The notes under the pieces: generated by a model | Databases searched by the model: none | What the model was told of the DNA's origin: nothing | What the model saw: the letters and a program-made list of their open reading frames with translations, nothing else | Assembly (NCBI RefSeq): GCF_024223415.1 | Contig: NZ_CP100502.1 | Strand: one strand, 5' to 3' | Length of the DNA: 64,000 bases | Source of the DNA: Escherichia coli | Lineage (GTDB): Bacteria; Pseudomonadota; Gammaproteobacteria; Enterobacterales; Enterobacteriaceae | Position numbers and translations under genes: made by a program | Part shown: positions 2,444 to 62,647 of the stretch, in pieces | Position numbering within the stretch: position 1 is the stretch's first letter | How the letters are laid out: the number at the start of each line of letters is the position of its first letter

Positions 2444-3424
2444 ATGAAAATCTTTATTGATGATGGTTCTACCAACATTAAACTTGCCTGGTTGGAGGAT
2501 GGTGACGTGAAAACGTTAATCAGCCCTAACAGCTTTAAACCGGAATGGTCTTTTAGTTTACTGGATGATGCTGCTCCGGCTAATTACGAGATCGACGGCG
2601 AGAAGTTTTCATTTGATCCATTAAGTGCTGATGCTGTCGTAACGACTGAAACACGCTATCAGTACAGTGATGTGAATGTTGTGGCCATTCAGCATGCGCT
2701 ACAGCAGACCGGCCTGAAAGCGCAGCCTGTTGATGTCATCGTCACATTGCCGATCTCTGAATACCTTGACGCCAACAATCAGAAAAATAAGCAAAACATT
2801 GAAAGAAAGAAAAAAAATGTGATGCGTGAAGTACGGGTGCAGGGGAGTGATGCATTTGTTATTCGCAGTGTTTCCGTTCTTCCTGAAAGTATTCCCGCTG
2901 GTTTCAGTGTTCTTGCGGGGCTTGAGGATGATGAATCCCTTTTGATCGTAGATCTCGGTGGTACAACTCTTGATGTGTCGCATGTTCGTAGCAAAATGAC
3001 AGGGATTACAAAAACCTGGTGTGATCCGAATATCGGCGTGTCCCTGATTACATCCGGGGTTAAGGAACAGATGGCTGTACATGCTAATACAAGAGTGAGC
3101 TCATTCCAGGCTGACAATATCATTGTGCACCGTAATGAACCTGACTACCTTTCCCGTCGCATTTATAATGCTGAACAGCGTGAGTCTATCATTAATGTTA
3201 TCAATGAACGGCAGAAGTTGCTTATTAAACGAGTTAATGATGTCATCAGCCGTTTCACCGACTATACACATGTAATGTGTGTTGGTGGTGGGGCTGAAAT
3301 TGTGGCCGAGGCTGTGAAGAACCTGACTAAGGTTCCTGATGAGCGCTTTTATCTGAGCTCATCCCCGCAGTTTGATTTAGTCATGGGAATGATAAAAATG
3401 AAAGGTGGTGTGACTAATGAGTGA
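2444..3424 (+). CDS. parM: ParM/StbA actin-like partition ATPase
   Basis: seq: N-terminus 'MKIFIDDGSTNIKLAW' matches the ParM/StbA phosphate-1 motif; GGAG RBS before ATG 2444 (track ORF from 2375); AT-rich region 2140..2440 upstream. Confidence 0.8.
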   Translation: MKIFIDDGSTNIKLAWLEDGDVKTLISPNSFKPEWSFSLLDDAAPANYEIDGEKFSFDPLSADAVVTTETRYQYSDVNVVAIQHALQQTGLKAQPVDVIVTLPISEYLDANNQKNKQNIERKKKNVMREVRVQGSDAFVIRSVSVLPESIPAGFSVLAGLEDDESLLIVDLGGTTLDVSHVRSKMTGITKTWCDPNIGVSLITSGVKEQMAVHANTRVSSFQADNIIVHRNEPDYLSRRIYNAEQRESIINVINERQKLLIKRVNDVISRFTDYTHVMCVGGGAEIVAEAVKNLTKVPDERFYLSSSPQFDLVMGMIKMKGGVTNE

Positions 3425-3833
3425 TGAAAATAAATCCAGACGCTGCTCATTTGAACTTTTCCCGGATGAACGGACAGGAGATAAGATAGCAGATGAGCTC
3501 ATTGCAAATGAAAAACTGAAGGAGCGGGGACGTTTCATGCGCGCGATGTTAGTTACTGGTGCGGCGTTTGCAGCTATAGATAAACGTCTTCCTTTGCTGA
3601 TATCGGAGTTACTGACAGAAAATACGACTCTGGATGATATTAATAAGGTGATTTCCAGCGTAATACCAGGTGCTTTTTCGGTTGAAAAGAAATTGCTTGA
3701 ATTACTGGAAAAACAATCTGGTCTCCATACGTCTGTGGATTGCAGTACTCCTCTTACAGAGCAGAGTCTGTCGAGAAATGACGGTGAAGACCAGACCAGA
3801 AGAAACGCTGAAAATATGTTCGGAGATGACTGA
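3417..3833 (+). CDS. ParR/StbB-like centromere-binding adaptor
   Basis: seq: 138-aa ORF whose start overlaps the parM stop (translational coupling). infer: by position. Confidence 0.45.
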   Translation: MSDENKSRRCSFELFPDERTGDKIADELIANEKLKERGRFMRAMLVTGAAFAAIDKRLPLLISELLTENTTLDDINKVISSVIPGAFSVEKKLLELLEKQSGLHTSVDCSTPLTEQSLSRNDGEDQTRRNAENMFGDD

Positions 3834-11199: not shown

Positions 11200-11905
11200 G
11201 CCCGCGCGAAAACCCCTGGCAGGCTGACGCCTGCCGGAAGGGAAGCGGGCCACGCTGGCGCGTCGCCCGTTACCCTTCCCGTCTGTGATGTGTCTGACTC
11301 AGGAGTGTTTCTTTCTTATGTTATGGAACTGTTCCTGATGTTGTTGTTCCTTTATCTGCTGCTCTGATTCTGACTACTGCAGTGTTGTTCTGTCTGCCGG
11401 GCGCACCTTCGGCTCCCGGCTGCCTGGCGGCATCCGGTCGTCAGGCCCGACTCCGACAGGCAGCTGCTGGCGCACCCGCCAGTCTCCGCCGAACCCGCTG
11501 GCGCGGTTTCGGGCTGTCGCTACGGTCCGATGCGTGAAAACCCGGGCTTGCAGCGACCGTTCCGGTCGCGCCGCCTCTGTCGCGCCGTGACCTGCGCTCC
11601 CTGCACACCTGACGGTGTGTGAGGAAACTGCGCCTGATGGCGCAGCAGTCCTCCCTCCTGCCGCCACCTCTGCGGCCTGTTTCCCGCTGTGGACTTTCCG
11701 GGGGGCAGACGTAACCCCCTCCCGTTCCATCTGTCCAGGGTGAGATGCACCGGCCACAAAATTTTTAGCCATGAACCCGGCAAAAAATTTTGCGTCCGCC
11801 CCCGGACAGCTGTCCCGTGAGGCGGTAAACGGGCCCCCATCGGAAAGGTCCACTGCGGGGAGAAACCCCTGTGAAGTGGACGGCAGGAGGAGCTTTCGCT
11901 CCTCT
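11200..11905 (+). repeat. Family-B ssi/Frpo-like repeat, copy B1
   Basis: seq: long GC-rich repeat shared with 17600..18250 and partly with 20815..21140 (e.g. 'caccttcggctcccggctgcctggcggcatccggtcgtcaggcccgactccgacaggcag'); ends about 70 nt before ssb. Confidence 0.55.
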
Positions 11906-51064: not shown

Positions 51065-51616
51065 TCAGGGTTTCCAGTCTGTACCCTTATTCCAGCGATC
51101 CTGCCAGTGTTCAAGATATTGTGCGGCTACATCCGGCATATTCTTGAGCACAACGACATTCTCTGAATTCTTGCGTGCAGCAGCACGAGAGAAGTTATAG
51201 GAGCCAGTTTCAACCGTGTTTCCGTCAACAATGATGACTTTGTCGTGATGGATGGGGAAGGCATCTACAGTCCGGAGAGGAATGTCCAGCAGGTTGATAT
51301 ATTTCATCGCTTCCTGACTTGCCCGGTTCGTATTCCCCTTGTCATCAACAACAATACGGACGTCCACTCCGCGTTTTTTCGCTTTTGCCAGCGCATGCAT
51401 TACATCCGGGTCGGTGAAGGAATATGCCATCATCCTGATGGAGCTTTCCGCACTGTTGATTGTGTCAAGCACCAGAGCGGATGCGCTTCCTTCAGGAGAA
51501 AAGCCGACCTTCACGGATGGCGTGTCGATCATTGCAAACGATGGTGTCGTGAACAGTAACGGGCATGCCAGTAGCGATACCCGGAGCAGAGTAACGATAG
51601 TTTTTTTACCTGACAT
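51065..51616 (-). CDS. nuc: Secreted phospholipase-D-family endonuclease Nuc
   Basis: seq: ATG 51616 with GGAG RBS gives 183 aa 'MSGKKTIVTLLRVSLLACPLLF...'; HKD motif 'IHHDKVIIVDGNTVETGSYNFSRAA' (track ORF 303 aa). Confidence 0.8.
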   Translation of the reverse strand: MSGKKTIVTLLRVSLLACPLLFTTPSFAMIDTPSVKVGFSPEGSASALVLDTINSAESSIRMMAYSFTDPDVMHALAKAKKRGVDVRIVVDDKGNTNRASQEAMKYINLLDIPLRTVDAFPIHHDKVIIVDGNTVETGSYNFSRAAARKNSENVVVLKNMPDVAAQYLEHWQDRWNKGTDWKP

Positions 51617-53066: not shown

Positions 53067-53881
53067 CGGGAGCCTCCTTCAGTGCCTATAAGCGGACGCC
53101 AGTGAGATTTCTGAAGATTGAATTCCGCATGATTTTTAAGGCGACGAACACGATCTCCAGTGACCAGTTTTTTCCCGTCACCTGTAACGGTTTGCATTTG
53201 ATCAGAAACATCCGGACGGGTGATCATGCCCTGACGCCAGAGAAGTGAGTACAGCATCATGCCCCGGTAATCACGGGTGAGGGTTTTCTGGTTGGCTTCA
53301 AGCGTCAGGTCGGCGTTTTGTCTTCCTTCCTGCCATCCCTGCCGTAATGCGGTTTCCCACACTTTTCGTTGCACGCTGTCTTCTGGAACGACGCTGCCTT
53401 CTGTACCCGGAGTGGCTGTTGTTGAAAGCCCCCGGAGAAGCCAGTCACGCCAGCCCGGTGGATTGCTGACAAAGCGTTCAGGGCGAATGATGGTCCAGAC
53501 CCGGGAAGAGGTCCGGATTTGATCTGGCGTGATATGAGCTACGTCCTGTGCTTCATCAATAACCGGTGGTAGCCAGCCTTCCGGGCTAATCAGTGGCCGG
53601 AAATCGTATAAGGCATTAAGTGTGCTTTCCCGGGCGTTGAGCGCCTGAATCAGCTCCCATGAACGCTGAGCCTTGCCACCACGAAATCCAAGCGTTTTAC
53701 CTGCGTCTGTCAGCATTTTCCAGCGTGTTTCTGACAGACTATCCGGCTTTTCACTTCGTGGTTTAAGCCATGCATTAATGTCAGGTGGTGGCGTATTGAC
53801 ACCACCTGGCGAGATGGTAGGGGAAGAAGAACAACCAGTAAGCAGTATTACTGGCAAAAGGAGAGAGGTGAGTGCTTTCAT
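53063..53881 (-). CDS. traI: TraI lipoprotein
   Basis: seq: 272 aa with lipobox 'LLLPVILLTGCSS'. Confidence 0.7.
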   Translation of the reverse strand: MKALTSLLLPVILLTGCSSSPTISPGGVNTPPPDINAWLKPRSEKPDSLSETRWKMLTDAGKTLGFRGGKAQRSWELIQALNARESTLNALYDFRPLISPEGWLPPVIDEAQDVAHITPDQIRTSSRVWTIIRPERFVSNPPGWRDWLLRGLSTTATPGTEGSVVPEDSVQRKVWETALRQGWQEGRQNADLTLEANQKTLTRDYRGMMLYSLLWRQGMITRPDVSDQMQTVTGDGKKLVTGDRVRRLKNHAEFNLQKSHWRPLIGTEGGSR

Positions 53882-54336
53882 TTTTTCCGGTTCTCCGGCT
53901 GCATGAAGCTGACCTGTAACAAGCCCGGATATTGATGGATTGTTGCTCTCCAGGCTGTCTGGGCTTCAATAAGTCTCAACGTATTGGAAAACGTCATATC
54001 CCGGACGTGAAGGTTGACTGGTAACGGCAGGCGGACACCATTGTAGTTAAACTGCATCCCCCTGACTCTGGCCAGTTCGTTCAGTAATTCAATTGCATCA
54101 CCTTCCCAGTCAAAGGAAAGGCGATCGCTGTTAGCTGTCAGAAGATGAGACCCCGTTGAAACCGGAAGTTGGCCGGAAAATACACCTTTGTCCCATAATG
54201 TGTACTGAGTGTGCCGGGTAACCGCCACATCAGAGGCAGCACCGTAGTTACGCGGAACAGGAGTATGCTGAGAAGGGGAGTTGCAGCCAGCCAGAAAAAG
54301 GGCGGCAAGACACCCCGCAGGTATAATACGGTTCAT
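53878..54336 (-). CDS. traH: TraH lipoprotein
   Basis: seq: 152 aa with lipobox 'LAALFLAGCNS'. Confidence 0.7.
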   Translation of the reverse strand: MNRIIPAGCLAALFLAGCNSPSQHTPVPRNYGAASDVAVTRHTQYTLWDKGVFSGQLPVSTGSHLLTANSDRLSFDWEGDAIELLNELARVRGMQFNYNGVRLPLPVNLHVRDMTFSNTLRLIEAQTAWRATIHQYPGLLQVSFMQPENRKK

Positions 54337-54730
54337 AATAATTCCTGAGCAGTTAAATCAGAATGGGATATACCGGTGCTCCGGTACAGACAGGATGATG
54401 TTTGTTTCCGGCTATACTTGCGTTACCGGAAATAAATGCCAGTGTGGCCAGGTAAATAGCCTCATAGTTTACTGAAGGTGATTATTCCTGATACTGGCTG
54501 GTTGATGTGTCGTCAGACATAAAACGAATATGAGCGTAATCTTTAACGCTCCGCGCCGAATCGATCCATGATGGATGACTCGACGATTTATGAATCGAAC
54601 GTACCGGCGCTTGTCCCTGAAACAGTTCCCGGCCCTCGTCCGGATAACCTGCAATTCAGACAGGCACATGTGCCCGTACACTCTTGTATCTTACTGAGTA
54701 TATCAGAATTTATGTAAATTCAAATATCCT

Positions 54731-55315
54731 CTATGCCTCTTTGTTGTATTTTCCGTCAAGTATGAGCCGGGTACCATCGTAATGCATGATCAGGGCATCA
54801 AGGTACGCCGGTTTGAATTTCTTGCCGAGCCTATCTCTGGCCAGAAATGATAAACAATGATTATGTGTCATTATTACTATGTTCCTTTTATGAGATTCTC
54901 TTGCGATTGATTCAAGCGTCTTATAAAGATCATTATTGCAGTCTGATAAACTGTCCATAACGACGGGTTCTTTACCGGAGAAGAATTTTGCAGTTTGTAT
55001 GGTTCTTACCGCATTGCTGGAGTAAATATCATATTCACTGAAGATTGTTGCGAACTTAATACCTTCCTGCTGTGCTTTCTCTGTACCGGTAATAGTGATT
55101 CCGCTTTTATCCGAATAGCATGGCATATCTGAACGGTCGCAACGTTCTCCATGGCGGAAAAGGAAAATAACGGTGTTATCAGCATTAATTTCTTTTGCCT
55201 GTTCCAGGGTGATATCGGGAAGCGAGCTTTTTGCTTTTGTCACTGCCGCTACCAGGAAAACAGAAAATAAAAGAATGAATGCTGTTTTTGAATAAGAAGA
55301 ACGTGGTTTCATCAT
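54731..55315 (-). CDS. Secreted histidine-phosphatase-superfamily protein (possibly traG)
   Basis: seq: 194 aa with signal peptide and RHG motif 'FLFRHGER'. infer: traG naming by position only. Confidence 0.55.
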   Translation of the reverse strand: MMKPRSSYSKTAFILLFSVFLVAAVTKAKSSLPDITLEQAKEINADNTVIFLFRHGERCDRSDMPCYSDKSGITITGTEKAQQEGIKFATIFSEYDIYSSNAVRTIQTAKFFSGKEPVVMDSLSDCNNDLYKTLESIARESHKRNIVIMTHNHCLSFLARDRLGKKFKPAYLDALIMHYDGTRLILDGKYNKEA

Positions 55316-55374
55316 GTTATTTAAACTGAATATAAAAATACCCCCGGGTTTAGTGCCGGGGGCGGGGACAGTAA

Positions 55375-56577
55375 TCAGAAAGTGAACTGAAGTTGTGCCA
55401 TTGCACCGTAATCGTGGTCAGTTCCTACCAGGCCGGAAACATCGATATGTACGACGTCAAATGGAGAGATACCAACGCCAGCGGTGAAGGCGCTTCCGGA
55501 GTTTGATGCCATGTTCTGACGATAACCGGCACGCAATTGCGCCCATTTCCATGCGTTAAATTCAGCACCAACACTTGCAAACTGACGTTTGCTGTCAGAA
55601 GTGAAGCCACTGGCAGGAGTCAGATCAATGTCAAGAGCAGTGGTAAACAGGTCATTATGCCAGGATACACCGGCGGTTGCCTGCGGACGAACTTTGAAGG
55701 TTTCTTTAAAGCCATTGACGACTTTAGTATCAATACTGCGTGGAATGATGTTCTGGGCAACAAGACCGACAGTCCAGTTGTCATTCAGGTCTGTATAAGC
55801 ACCAATATCGGCGTTGAATCCGTTTTTCGTGTTGTGGTACTTGTCACCGTCAAAATCGTCTTTGTCGTAATCACGAACCGTTACGTTGTAGTTAAACAGG
55901 TCCACACGCTGATATTTTGGTGTGACGCCAAGAGACCATTTTTGTCCGGCCGTTTCCAGTTCTTTGGCAAATGAAATTCCGACGTCGGTAATTACAGCTG
56001 CACGCCCGAATGCGCGTGAGGTCAGGGCATTCTTATCGACGTCGGTAATTGTTCCATTGGCAACTTTGTCCAGATAATCCAGGTCTGCATCGTTTACTTT
56101 TCCGTTTACGCTGACAGTTCCGTAAGACTTGACCATAAGGGCAAACGGCAGAGTGTCATTTGCCATGGCTGCTACAGCTGATACACCTACCTGAGCATCT
56201 GCATTGATATTGCGGAATTCCTGCAGACGATGTTTAAGATTTGCCGCTGCCTGTTGTACGCCATGCTGGTTATCTACAGCACTGTCAAACAAATCCCAGT
56301 CATCTTTAACATCATCAGCTTTATTTGATACATCATCAGGATCAGCAACTTGTGCCCCAACAGACGGCAGAAGAAGGCTGAAATCATCATTGCTGTTGTG
56401 CTTTGTCAGTAAAGCCGGGTTTGCCAGAGGTGCCACACCATAATGGGAAGATGCTACCCCGGTACCACCCATTGCATCGTTACGCGCTTCAAAATATGAC
56501 GTCGCTGCTGCAGCGTTAAAGGAAAATAATACAGCAGATGCAATGATGGTGCGGGTAATATGATTTTTCTTCATCAT
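55375..56577 (-). CDS. Outer-membrane beta-barrel-like protein (possibly traF)
   Basis: seq: 400 aa with signal peptide 'MMKKNHITRTIIASAVLFSFNAAAA' and C-terminal 'QLQFTF'. infer: traF naming by position only. Confidence 0.55.
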   Translation of the reverse strand: MMKKNHITRTIIASAVLFSFNAAAATSYFEARNDAMGGTGVASSHYGVAPLANPALLTKHNSNDDFSLLLPSVGAQVADPDDVSNKADDVKDDWDLFDSAVDNQHGVQQAAANLKHRLQEFRNINADAQVGVSAVAAMANDTLPFALMVKSYGTVSVNGKVNDADLDYLDKVANGTITDVDKNALTSRAFGRAAVITDVGISFAKELETAGQKWSLGVTPKYQRVDLFNYNVTVRDYDKDDFDGDKYHNTKNGFNADIGAYTDLNDNWTVGLVAQNIIPRSIDTKVVNGFKETFKVRPQATAGVSWHNDLFTTALDIDLTPASGFTSDSKRQFASVGAEFNAWKWAQLRAGYRQNMASNSGSAFTAGVGISPFDVVHIDVSGLVGTDHDYGAMAQLQFTF

Positions 56578-56661
56578 TTAATTTCCTGTTTATCAGAATT
56601 TAGACAAAACAACGCTATGACACGGATGTGCCGTAATTTTTACTTTGGTACTATCTGGTAT

Positions 56662-56928
56662 TTACCAGGGTAATAAAGACGTATTAAATAAGCTAACAGG
56701 TAGTATTTGCCCTGTAATAAGGTTCCCGGCAAGGCCAGGTCTCAACGTGACGCGTCGCAAAGACATTGTTGTATTCTGCCTGGTTGTATATTCAGTTAAC
56801 CATTTTCTTTTTTCATCGTTCAGAAGTGTTGGTGATAATGATAGTGCCGGATATATTACAGAGCCATTTATTTCTTTTTTCTGTCTCAATATTACCCCGC
56901 AATATTCTCTTTTCGTGTTTCCTGCGAA
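56662..56928 (-). pseudogene. 3' part of a traE-like gene separated from its 5' part by IS2
   Basis: seq: minus-strand frame continues from 58265 across the duplicated GGGGA into 56928..56662 ('...HSFP|FAGNTKREYCGVILRQ...'), reconstructing a 273-aa ORF. Confidence 0.7.
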
Positions 56929-56944
56929 GGGGATGGATTTGCCC

Positions 56945-57850
56945 CTATATTTCCAGACACCTGTTATCACTTAACCCATTACTGGCCTGCTGCCGCAGAT
57001 ATTCCCGTGGCGAGCGATAACCCAGTGCACTATGCGGATGCCATTCGTTATAATGCTCGAACGCCTCTGCAAGGTTCTTTGCTGCCGTTAACCCGTCTGG
57101 TTTAGGCATGATACTGATGTAGTCACGCTTTATCGTTTTCACGAAGCTCTCTGCTATGCCGTTACTCTCCGGACTCCGCACCGCCGTGTTCTTCGGTTCA
57201 AGCCCCAACATCCGGGCAAACTGCCGTGTTTCATTAGCCCGGTAGCATGAACCATTATCCGTCAGCCACTCTACTGGAGACGCCGGAAGCTCGTTGCCGA
57301 AGCGGCGTTCCACCGCTCCCAGCATTACGTCCTGTACTGTTTCACTGTCGAAGCCGCCCGTAGTGACTGCCCAGTGCAGTGCCTCACGGTCACAGCAGTC
57401 CAGCGCGAACGTGACTCGCAGTTTTTCTCCGTTATCACAGCGGAACTCGAACCCGTCAGAGCACCATCGTTGATTGCTTTCTTTCACGGCCACTTTGCCA
57501 GTATGTGCCCGTTTCGATGGCGGTACAGCGGTTTTTCGCTCAAGCAACAGCGCATTCTGGCGCATGATCCGGTAAACACGTTTGGCATTGATCGCAGGCA
57601 TACCATCAAGTTCGGCCTGTCTGCGAAGCAGCGCCCATACCCGACGATAACCATACGTGGGCAGCTCTCCGATAACATGGTGTATACGGAGAAGCACATC
57701 CGTATCATCTGAGTGACGGCTGCGGCGACCATCTTTCCAGTCATCGGTTCGTCTGAGAATGACGTGCAACTGCGCACGCGACACCCGGAGACAACGGCTG
57801 ACTAAGCTTACTCCCCATCCCCGGGCAATAAGGGCGCGTGCGCTATCCAC
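56945..57850 (-). CDS. insD: IS2 transposase orfB (DDE integrase core)
   Basis: seq: 301 aa '...[31 protein letters not shown]...[16 protein letters not shown]'. Confidence 0.9.
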
Positions 57851-58218
57851 TTTTTTGCACGCCCGTATTCAACGGCTTCTTTAAGGAGTTCATTTTCCAT
57901 CGTTTTTTTGCCGAGCAGGCGCTGGAGTTCTTTAATCTGCTTCATGGCAGCAGCAAGTTCAGAGGCAGGAACGACCTGCTCTCCTGCGGCCACAGCAGTA
58001 AGACTTCCCTCCTGGTATTGCTTGCGCCAGAGAAATAACTGGCTGGCTGCCACACCGTGTTGCCGGGCAACAAGGGAGACCGTCATTCCCGGTTCAAAAC
58101 TCTGCTGAACAATAGCGATCTTTTCCTGTGTAGTACGCCGTCTGCGTTTCTCCGGTCCTAAGACATCAATCATCTGCTCTCCAATGACTAGTCTAAAAAC
58201 TAGTATTAAGACTATCAC
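57808..58218 (-). CDS. insC: IS2 transposase orfA (HTH)
   Basis: seq: contains '[56 protein letters not shown]'; true start probably internal to the track ORF. Confidence 0.8.
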
Positions 58219-58264
58219 TTATTTAAGTGATATTGGTTGTCTGGAGATTCAGGGGGCCAGTCTA

Positions 58265-58822
58265 GGGGAAACTATGCCAGAAAATAACTTCAGTGTTGCT
58301 GCTATCACTAATAAGCATTCTGAAATTATCAGCAGTATCTGGCCATTCACCGGACAACGCTATCGGATAGTTTTCATGGCCATTCAGCCAGTCCGGATTG
58401 AGATTAAAACATTCAGCAAGATGTTCGAGAGCGTCAGCTGAAAGATAGTCTGCAAGTCTGGCCGGGTCCTGTATAACCGTGGAGCGGATATTCCATGGCG
58501 ACAGCAATGTTGCCAGTAATGGCGCATTTATATCATGCGACAGCATGATGTATTCAATTCTGCTTATTATGTTTCCTGTGGTGTTATCCGCAGGCATAAA
58601 CATATTATGAAGAGCATCCTCAAGCAGGATTCGGGTTAAATCAGCGGTGGATATGGCTAATTGTTCGCTCATTATCCCCAGAACTTCTCTTACCCCTTGG
58701 GGGTAACGGACCTGCAGAGGTGTCGGGTTTATCTGACGACCGTTGATGAGTTTTTCGCCGATTGCTTTTTTGTCCAGCGAGAGCATCATTCGGGCCGCAA
58801 TACCGGTCGTATTCAGTCTCAT
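58265..58822 (-). pseudogene. 5' part of the traE-like gene (185 codons) truncated by IS2
   Basis: seq: the ORF's stop codon (58262..58264) is supplied by the IS2 terminal 'cta'; see 56662..56928. Confidence 0.7.
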
Positions 58823-62422: not shown

Positions 62423-62467
62423 CACATCCCCGTCAATACGGCCCTCGCTGTACGCTTACTGATAACA

Positions 62468-62577
62468 TTGCTCCGGTAAAACTCCTGTTGATGCCCTTTC
62501 TTGTGAACAGAAACTGTTTTCAGGTACTTATCCAGTGCGCGTGACAGGGACATTTTACGGATGCGTGGAGACGGCAT
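62468..62577 (-). pseudogene. rci: rci 5' fragment (first 39 codons) upstream of the IS66-family insertion
   Basis: seq: ATG at 62577 '[39 protein letters not shown]' runs into the IS inverted repeat. Confidence 0.8.
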
Positions 62578-62628
62578 GCTAACCTCAAAAGAGGCAAAAA
62601 ATAATGCCAACAATCATTCTCTGCAAGC

Positions 62629-62647
62629 GTGCCAATCCGGTACCTGG
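62629..62647 (+). repeat. Shufflon 19-bp recombination site (sfx), direct orientation
   Basis: seq: 'gtgccaatccggtacctgg', encodes CQSGTW in the cassette frame. Confidence 0.8.

Follow-up and report, generated by a model that had tools for sequence, protein, structure and literature searches.

The only characterized relatives of the protein described here, TraG of IncI1 plasmids, are the Ais and PmrG proteins. PmrG of Salmonella strips phosphate from heptose II of the lipopolysaccharide (LPS) core (Nishino et al. 2006, as cited in PMC8129183). The ais gene of Escherichia coli K-12 adjoins arnB, and its product is annotated merely as "putative". TraG (194 aa) and Ais (200 aa) fall in the same NF011945 subfamily and are ~43% identical across the mature domain (43% identity, E 2e-51, for the K-12 protein); an N-terminal export signal, the RHxERCDRS and THNHC motifs, and four conserved cysteines are common to both. 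They differ in setting, since traG is plasmid-borne in a transfer region between traF and traH whereas the Ais/PmrG gene lies beside the chromosomal, PmrA-regulated arn operon (pmrHFIJKLM). They also differ in that TraG falls under the cut-off of the PmrG equivalog profile and forms its own clade among ~7 equally distant lineages.

More remote counterparts include SixA, RosC, and phosphoserine phosphatases, which resemble TraG in fold and in the layout of the catalytic His and Arg residues (Foldseek E ~1e-8 to 1e-6, TM ~0.5-0.6); in contrast to TraG, these enzymes are cytoplasmic, have no signal peptide, and lack the Cys pattern of TraG, and their identity to it is 11-20%. In position and behavior, TraG resembles Nuc, a PLD-family protein of the same R64 array, and the lytic transglycosylases of the VirB1/PilT type, which are also exported, tra-embedded, and unneeded in standard matings. 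Nuc is, like traG, missing from the IncK-type relatives examined. The targets of these proteins are DNA and peptidoglycan, respectively, and their chemistry is unrelated to the removal of a phosphomonoester from LPS. The TraG proteins of IncP and Ti plasmids (the coupling protein) and of F (VirB6-like) have only the name in common with the protein studied here and are not homologous to it; this coincidence of names is known to cause confusion in published work.

The contribution of TraG to conjugation was assessed previously by transposon sequencing (TnSeq) of the IncI1 plasmid pESBL during solid-medium transfer to a K-12 recipient, which scored TraG as non-essential (0.79) with a "required for transfer" probability of 0.00 (PMC4288162). 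TraE and TraF were likewise non-essential, and the study regarded the traH-Y block as the general conjugation genes (PMC4288162). The dispensability of traG in R64 itself we infer from the comparison of Yamaichi et al. In public records, TraG is labeled "histidine phosphatase" or "LPS core heptose(II)-phosphate phosphatase", and some GenBank records carry the label "traG: histidine phosphatase domain protein"; a literature search found no paper joining IncI1, traG, and "histidine phosphatase". Since records of the gene, of its family assignment, and of its dispensability for transfer already exist, no new biology is added at this level. What the present analysis contributes is the pattern of presence and absence of traG among IncI-type relatives, a sharply bounded recombination mosaic of ~1 kb around the gene, the movement of the TraG clade between tra and non-tra contexts while under purifying selection, and a testable hypothesis for its role.

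The traG locus of an IncI1 backbone

We analyzed a stretch of 64,000 nucleotides from E. coli contig NZ_CP100502.1 (the window), in which traG is read as an intact open reading frame (ORF) with an ATG-ATG start and a TAG stop (Table 1). The gene located between traF and traH in plasmid R64 is traG, and the 2.3-kb stretch around it in the window has 100% identity with R64 as well as with numerous further IncI1 plasmids from Escherichia, Salmonella, Shigella, and Klebsiella; the remainder of the window is IncI1 backbone too. The first-pass annotation had located the gene between a traH lipoprotein and an outer-membrane traF-like gene, which agrees with the DotD-family traH and the TraF_2-type traF identified on its two sides. 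Past traH, the gene order continues with traI and then the ATPase gene traJ. Among plasmids in PLSDB, ~1,370 possess traG at at least 90% identity, with more than 1,200 records at 100% identity, and TraG is intact (at least 80% of the protein covered) in 1,391 of the 1,440 matching records. The gene is thus kept in nearly all R64-type plasmids.

Several other features of the window were observed in passing. The nuc gene is absent from the IncIγ/K1 and IncK2/Z relatives examined, in which traK comes immediately after the primase gene. An IS2 element splits traE in the window, and the duplication of R64 (L001) positions 11529-11534 at both IS2 junctions suggests a target-site duplication. Colinearity with R64 (L001 13275-13462) breaks down in the shufflon region downstream of rci, as expected for shufflon inversion.

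Table 1. Features of the window in and around traG, with their coordinates, strand, and basis
Feature	Position	Strand	Basis or remark
traG CDS, 194 aa, Ais/PmrG-like branch-1 histidine phosphatase	54731-55315	-	Intact ORF; 100% identical to R64 WP_000977522.1; PF00300 and NF011945
TraG codons 1-28, putative Sec signal peptide (alternatively a signal anchor)	55232-55315	-	Net +3, hydrophobic core, T-K-A c-region
RHG motif: R54, predicted nucleophile H55, G56	55148-55156	-	Read from sequence; opens family signature RHxERCDRS
T150-H151-N152-H153, C154 next: predicted second catalytic His region	54857-54868	-	T150, H151, and C154 nearly invariant
traF, outer-membrane TraF_2/PorV-like, barrel-like	55375-56577	-	Upstream of traG; Pfam TraF_2 E 4.5e-73
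traH, DotD-family lipoprotein, first gene of traH-Y block	53878-54336	-	Downstream of traG
Terminator-like GC-rich hairpin and T-run, traF stop to traG start	55340-55363	-	Terminator scan; -19.1 kcal/mol, z -2.5
Promoter-like element: TTGAAT, 15 nt, TGaTATACT (extended -10), directly after traG stop	54697-54724	-	Read from sequence
Mosaic module: hairpin, traG, and traG-traH spacer	54337-55372	-	History differs from flanks
25-nt conserved block of traG-traH spacer	54546-54570	-	Identical in window, L016, L005, and L004
Small ORF, 49 aa, antisense to tra genes	54569-54718	+	Begins inside the 25-nt block
nuc, PLD-family nuclease	51065-51616	-	Exported, transfer-dispensable
IS2	56934-58263		Splits traE
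IS2 orfA	57808-58218		
IS2 orfB	56945-57850		
traE fragments	~56662-56933 and 58264-58822		Separated by IS2
Shufflon region downstream of rci	62460-62647		Not colinear with R64

Export signal, catalytic motifs, and family of TraG

The N-terminus of TraG (MMKPRSSYSK-TAFILLFSVFLVAAV-TKA/KSS) consists of an n-region with a net charge of +3, a hydrophobic core of 15 residues with a mean Kyte-Doolittle value of 2.72, and a c-region of the small-x-small type. Nothing comparable to this core occurs elsewhere in the protein, and a comparable hydrophobic N-terminus is found in all aligned family members. In the AlphaFold2 model of TraG, which was built on a 62-sequence alignment and has a mean pLDDT of 94.5, residues 8-28 form a separate helix ahead of a globular alpha/beta domain. 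The first-pass annotation had described a signal-peptide-bearing protein of the histidine phosphatase family with an RHG motif, and each element of that description was borne out by the Sec-type N-terminus, the profile matches given below, and R54-H55-G56. The longer signature that encloses the RHG of TraG is FLFRHGERCDRS. Within the 62-sequence family alignment, H55 is invariant, and R54, E57, R58, D60, and S62 are at least 90% conserved. The second catalytic Arg is predicted to be R104, an invariant residue of an RTxQTA motif (RTIQTA in TraG), and the second catalytic His is predicted to be H151 (nt 54865-54863), in THNHC (residues 150-154). All members of the putative catalytic set (R54-H55-G56, R58, R104, and H151) are invariant or at least 90% conserved in the family. 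The same alignment revealed that C59, C66, and C126 are invariant and that C154 is at least 90% conserved, a pattern suggesting that the four conserved Cys residues may pair as two periplasmic disulfides.

Profile searches placed TraG firmly in its family. Pfam PF00300 (His_Phos_1) matched at 35.1 bits (gathering cut-off 21.7, E 1.4e-8), and NCBIfam NF011945 (PRK15416) matched at 295.1 bits (cut-off 142). The latter alignment was full-length, with residues 1-192 of TraG on profile positions 4-200 of 201, and its E value of 2.2e-88 makes the family match far beyond chance. No Dot/Icm family profile matched TraG in the Pfam and NCBIfam scans, and the score against the PmrG equivalog NF052369 was below the cut-off (123.7 bits vs 170). 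The top 50 fold matches in the PDB to the TraG model (Foldseek) were all histidine phosphatases, including RosC, SixA, PSP, PGAM5, and TIGAR. A sequence search of the PDB with TraG gave no match at E ≤ 1, indicating that no structure has been solved for the Ais/PmrG-like subfamily. In its sequence and its modeled fold, TraG possesses every feature predicted for a branch-1 histidine phosphatase of the Ais/PmrG-like type that is both active and exported.

The Ais/PmrG-like family is small, a scan of 1.84 billion representative proteins yielding 131 clusters at E ≤ 1e-3 and 13 clusters at E ≤ 1e-30. A neighbor-joining (NJ) tree divided the family into ~7 enterobacterial lineages that are ~40-45% identical to one another and whose deep branching was not resolved: chromosomal Ais, the TraG clade, a lineage on SPATE-virulence plasmids, an IncF-plasmid lineage, a Mig-14-adjacent lineage, the P0040/L010 lineage of the traF-traH slot, and P0039. 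TraG is ~42% identical to every other lineage and stands in a clade of its own. Because of this uniform distance, together with the score below the equivalog cut-off, the substrate of TraG could differ from that of PmrG. Two members of the TraG clade were found outside tra regions, one (87% identical) among T2SS-related and ABC-transporter genes and the other (60% identical) among AraC and CaiF/GrlA-type regulators. Across the Enterobacteriaceae, Ais-like paralogues show wide mobility (L012-L014 of P0033, L015, L018 of P0047, L017 of P0004, and L008 of P0020); their settings include a SPATE autotransporter with two alpha/beta hydrolases on virulence plasmids, an IncF plasmid, Mig-14, T2SS-related genes, and an AraC/CaiF-GrlA regulator island.

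The traF-traH interval: expression signals, mosaic structure, and occupancy

The hairpin that follows traF ends 24 nt before the traG ATG, and those 24 nt contain neither a Shine-Dalgarno sequence nor a promoter match; a sigma-70 scan between traF and traG likewise found no promoter. Expression of traG may be low because of these features, i.e., the lack of a Shine-Dalgarno sequence and of its own promoter, and the terminator-like hairpin located just upstream. Six IncI-type lineages (the window type, L002, L003, L004, L005, and L010), with or without traG, have a GC-rich hairpin directly after the traF stop; the hairpin sequence varies and its stem is kept (-15 to -24 kcal/mol), with a clear T-run only in the R64 type. 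The hairpin may represent a terminator or an mRNA-stabilizing element for traF. On the other side of traG, the promoter-like element is conserved in L004, L005, and L016 amid surroundings that are only ~67-80% identical, and we presume from its sequence that it is the promoter of the traH operon; it was not reported by the consensus promoter scan. The gene is thus situated between two apparent transcription units, and read-through from traE-traF is its probable means of expression. An RfaH-driven form of read-through past the traF hairpin is unsupported, since the window contains no exact match to the RfaH ops element (GGCGGTAGnnTG) and one-mismatch matches were no commoner than chance.

Additional elements were noted in the 394-bp spacer between traG and traH. 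The 25-nt block (CATGGATCGATTCGGCGCGGAGCGT) shared by the window, L016, L005, and L004 is embedded in spacer sequence of ~67-80% identity, is positioned in the presumed traH 5' leader, and has no Rfam match; an Rfam scan of 53800-56800 returned one chance-level match only. The small antisense ORF (MMDDSTIYESNVPALVPETV...) can be recognized by eye over its first ~25 codons in L005 (which has no complete ORF) and in L004 (28 aa). Its downstream length and frame are not conserved, and the resemblance may simply reflect conserved DNA. A 70-aa sense ORF in the spacer (54469-54681) was rejected as a gene, having no Pfam match and a frame that is broken in L005.

We examined the history of this interval by comparing the window with L005, a plasmid contig that carries a 73%-identical traG allele. 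The two sequences are 100% identical at the nucleotide level in traF up to its stop codon. Identity falls to 69-86% between ~55440 and 54542, across traG and the initial half of the spacer; the remainder, 54541-54333, aligns poorly as far as the start of traH, and identity is again 90-100%, mostly 97-100%, in traH through traJ. At the protein level, TraG is 73% identical, whereas TraF, TraH, TraI, and TraJ are 97-100% identical. The GC content of the module is ~0.40, vs ~0.50 in traH-traJ. The two traG alleles exhibit a dS of ~1.05 and a dN/dS of 0.15, values indicating that the divergence of traG arose by allele replacement through recombination and not by fast evolution. Among TraG-clade alleles, dN/dS is 0.14-0.25, also at dS >1; with typical values of ~0.15-0.2, traG is under purifying selection and is maintained. 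A more divergent plasmid, L010 (TraF 86%, TraH 65%, and TraJ 57% identical), has at this site a family member with 41% identity, and an Ais-like gene is thus found between traF and traH in three alleles (98%, 73%, and 41% identity). The NJ tree relates the L010 slot gene to R64 traG through deep branches with bootstrap values of 26-66, so ancient residence and a second capture are indistinguishable for this gene. The chief hint that traG pays its way comes from this recurrent occupancy of the slot and from the retention of the gene by nearly all plasmids of the R64 type.

Other relatives have no gene at this site. The gap between traF and traH is 103 bp in IncIγ/K1 (L002), 358 bp in IncK2/Z (L003), and 520 bp in L004, and these three gaps contain no TraG-like coding potential and no significant tblastn match to a traG remnant. 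Diverged traH and traF genes occur in ~800 PLSDB records, and a TraG relative of <60% identity occurs in only 68 plasmids of any kind. Co-divergence with the core T4SS across MPF_I was not observed for traG, the gene being absent from L002, L003, and L004, and in some plasmids natural IS insertions lie in and around it. The TnSeq value of 0.00, the absence of the gene from MPF_I relatives, the natural IS insertions, and the clade members located outside tra indicate that TraG is neither a structural nor an essential component of the type IVB secretion machine and that traG behaves like a swappable accessory gene. The idea of a machine component whose loss would affect transfer was not supported by these same observations. 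In L004, positions 3357-3474 of the empty gap include brief matches, on the one hand to the leader of traG (TATATTCAGT) and on the other to its final codons together with the promoter that follows them (GCA..AGG.TATTTGAATTT). These matches, which are too short for significance, could be the scar of a precise traG deletion.

Possible roles of TraG

We consider it probable that traG is an accessory gene for an exported LPS-core phosphatase whose action modifies the envelope of the donor cell. TraG would be exported by Sec to the periplasm and oxidized to form two disulfides. With H55 as the nucleophile and with phosphate held by R54, R58, R104, and H151, the enzyme would remove a phosphomonoester from the inner core of its host's own LPS. 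Heptose(II)-phosphate is a candidate target by analogy with Salmonella PmrG, an analogy drawn at 42% identity and below the equivalog cut-off. The resulting donor surface would be less negatively charged and would display a changed epitope. Lodged as an accessory gene between the traF hairpin on its upstream side and the traH promoter-like element on its downstream side, traG would depend on read-through for its expression. Of the sites of action proposed in the first-pass annotation, LPS agrees with the homology to Ais and PmrG, while local modification of peptidoglycan and action on the recipient surface gained no support; being a Sec-exported periplasmic enzyme, TraG would act on the envelope of the donor itself.

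The benefit of such an activity could lie entirely with the host. Lower charge of the LPS core could protect against Fe3+ or Al3+, cationic peptides, bile, or LPS-specific phages, and traG would then be pure cargo that has no link to conjugation and occupies a permissive gap between operons. The known role of PmrG (PMC8129183), the presence of paralogues beside Mig-14, on SPATE virulence plasmids, and on IncF plasmids, the low GC content and mosaic history of the module, and the dispensability of traG for transfer (PMC4288162) are all consistent with this account, which overlaps the one we favor in that the enzyme activity is the same and only the benefit differs. We regard it as possible but rather unlikely, given that pmrG deletion in E. 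coli left polymyxin resistance unchanged (PMC8129183) and that the repeated use of the traF-traH slot would go unexplained. A benefit linked to conjugation is attractive because PilV adhesins use LPS core receptors: by altering the inner core of donor LPS, TraG might cause PilV adhesins to skip sibling donors, or might assist the pilus or T4SS in particular hosts or under liquid or gut conditions. I-type PilV adhesins bind LPS core epitopes, with PilVA' using Hep-alpha(1-3)-Hep-4-phosphate (PMC10654706), and traF-lacZ expression in the IncI1 plasmid pTF2 depends on waaP, waaQ, and rfaH (PMC6768964). Such a link is compatible with the location of traG, which has the pil/shufflon block on one side and the T4SS genes on the other, with the three divergent alleles of the slot gene, and with the persistence of intact traG in more than 1,300 plasmids, where it is under purifying selection. 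The slot recurrence and retention in R64-type plasmids hint at a conjugation-linked role that plate matings with K-12 would miss. Nevertheless, TraG is unneeded in plate matings (PMC4288162), the heptose(II) phosphate added by WaaY is dispensable for PilVA' recognition (PMC10654706), shufflon-bearing sister plasmids do not have traG, and close TraG relatives reside outside tra loci, so that editing of mating receptors is an unlikely explanation overall. Its most specific form, in which TraG edits the donor core phosphates read by PilV to bring about surface exclusion of siblings and in which allele swaps between traF and traH represent adaptation to host core types, we judge to be more doubtful still.

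Two further explanations depart from the proposed LPS-core phosphatase. TraG might be a phosphatase of proteins or small molecules, such as a SixA-like phosphohistidine phosphatase acting on a periplasmic or envelope protein; SixA is among the closest solved folds, and LPS as the substrate of TraG follows from homology and not from biochemistry. However, TraG scored only 14.8 bits against TIGR00249 (cut-off 74.5), compared to its full-length match of 295 bits to NF011945, and the RHxERCDRS signature, the four Cys residues, and the export signal are common to TraG and Ais but not to cytoplasmic SixA, making this explanation highly improbable. Finally, the dispensability of traG, its lack of a Shine-Dalgarno sequence, its position behind a terminator-like hairpin, and its interruption by IS elements in some plasmids might be taken as signs of a decaying remnant without function. 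This notion is barely credible for a gene that is intact in 1,391 of 1,440 records, exhibits a dN/dS of ~0.15-0.2 even at dS >1, and retains all of its catalytic residues.

For the accessory LPS-core phosphatase that we favor, any physiological benefit can be approached by inference only, and the consequence for the plasmid is speculative. The question is of interest in that IncI1 plasmids rank among the main vehicles of ESBL and AmpC genes in E. coli and Salmonella, and traG is among the few genes of their transfer region to have a clear enzymatic prediction yet no known role. If TraG does remodel the LPS core of the donor, its activity might affect the specificity of mating, the susceptibility of plasmid carriers to phages and antimicrobial peptides, and their fitness in the gut.
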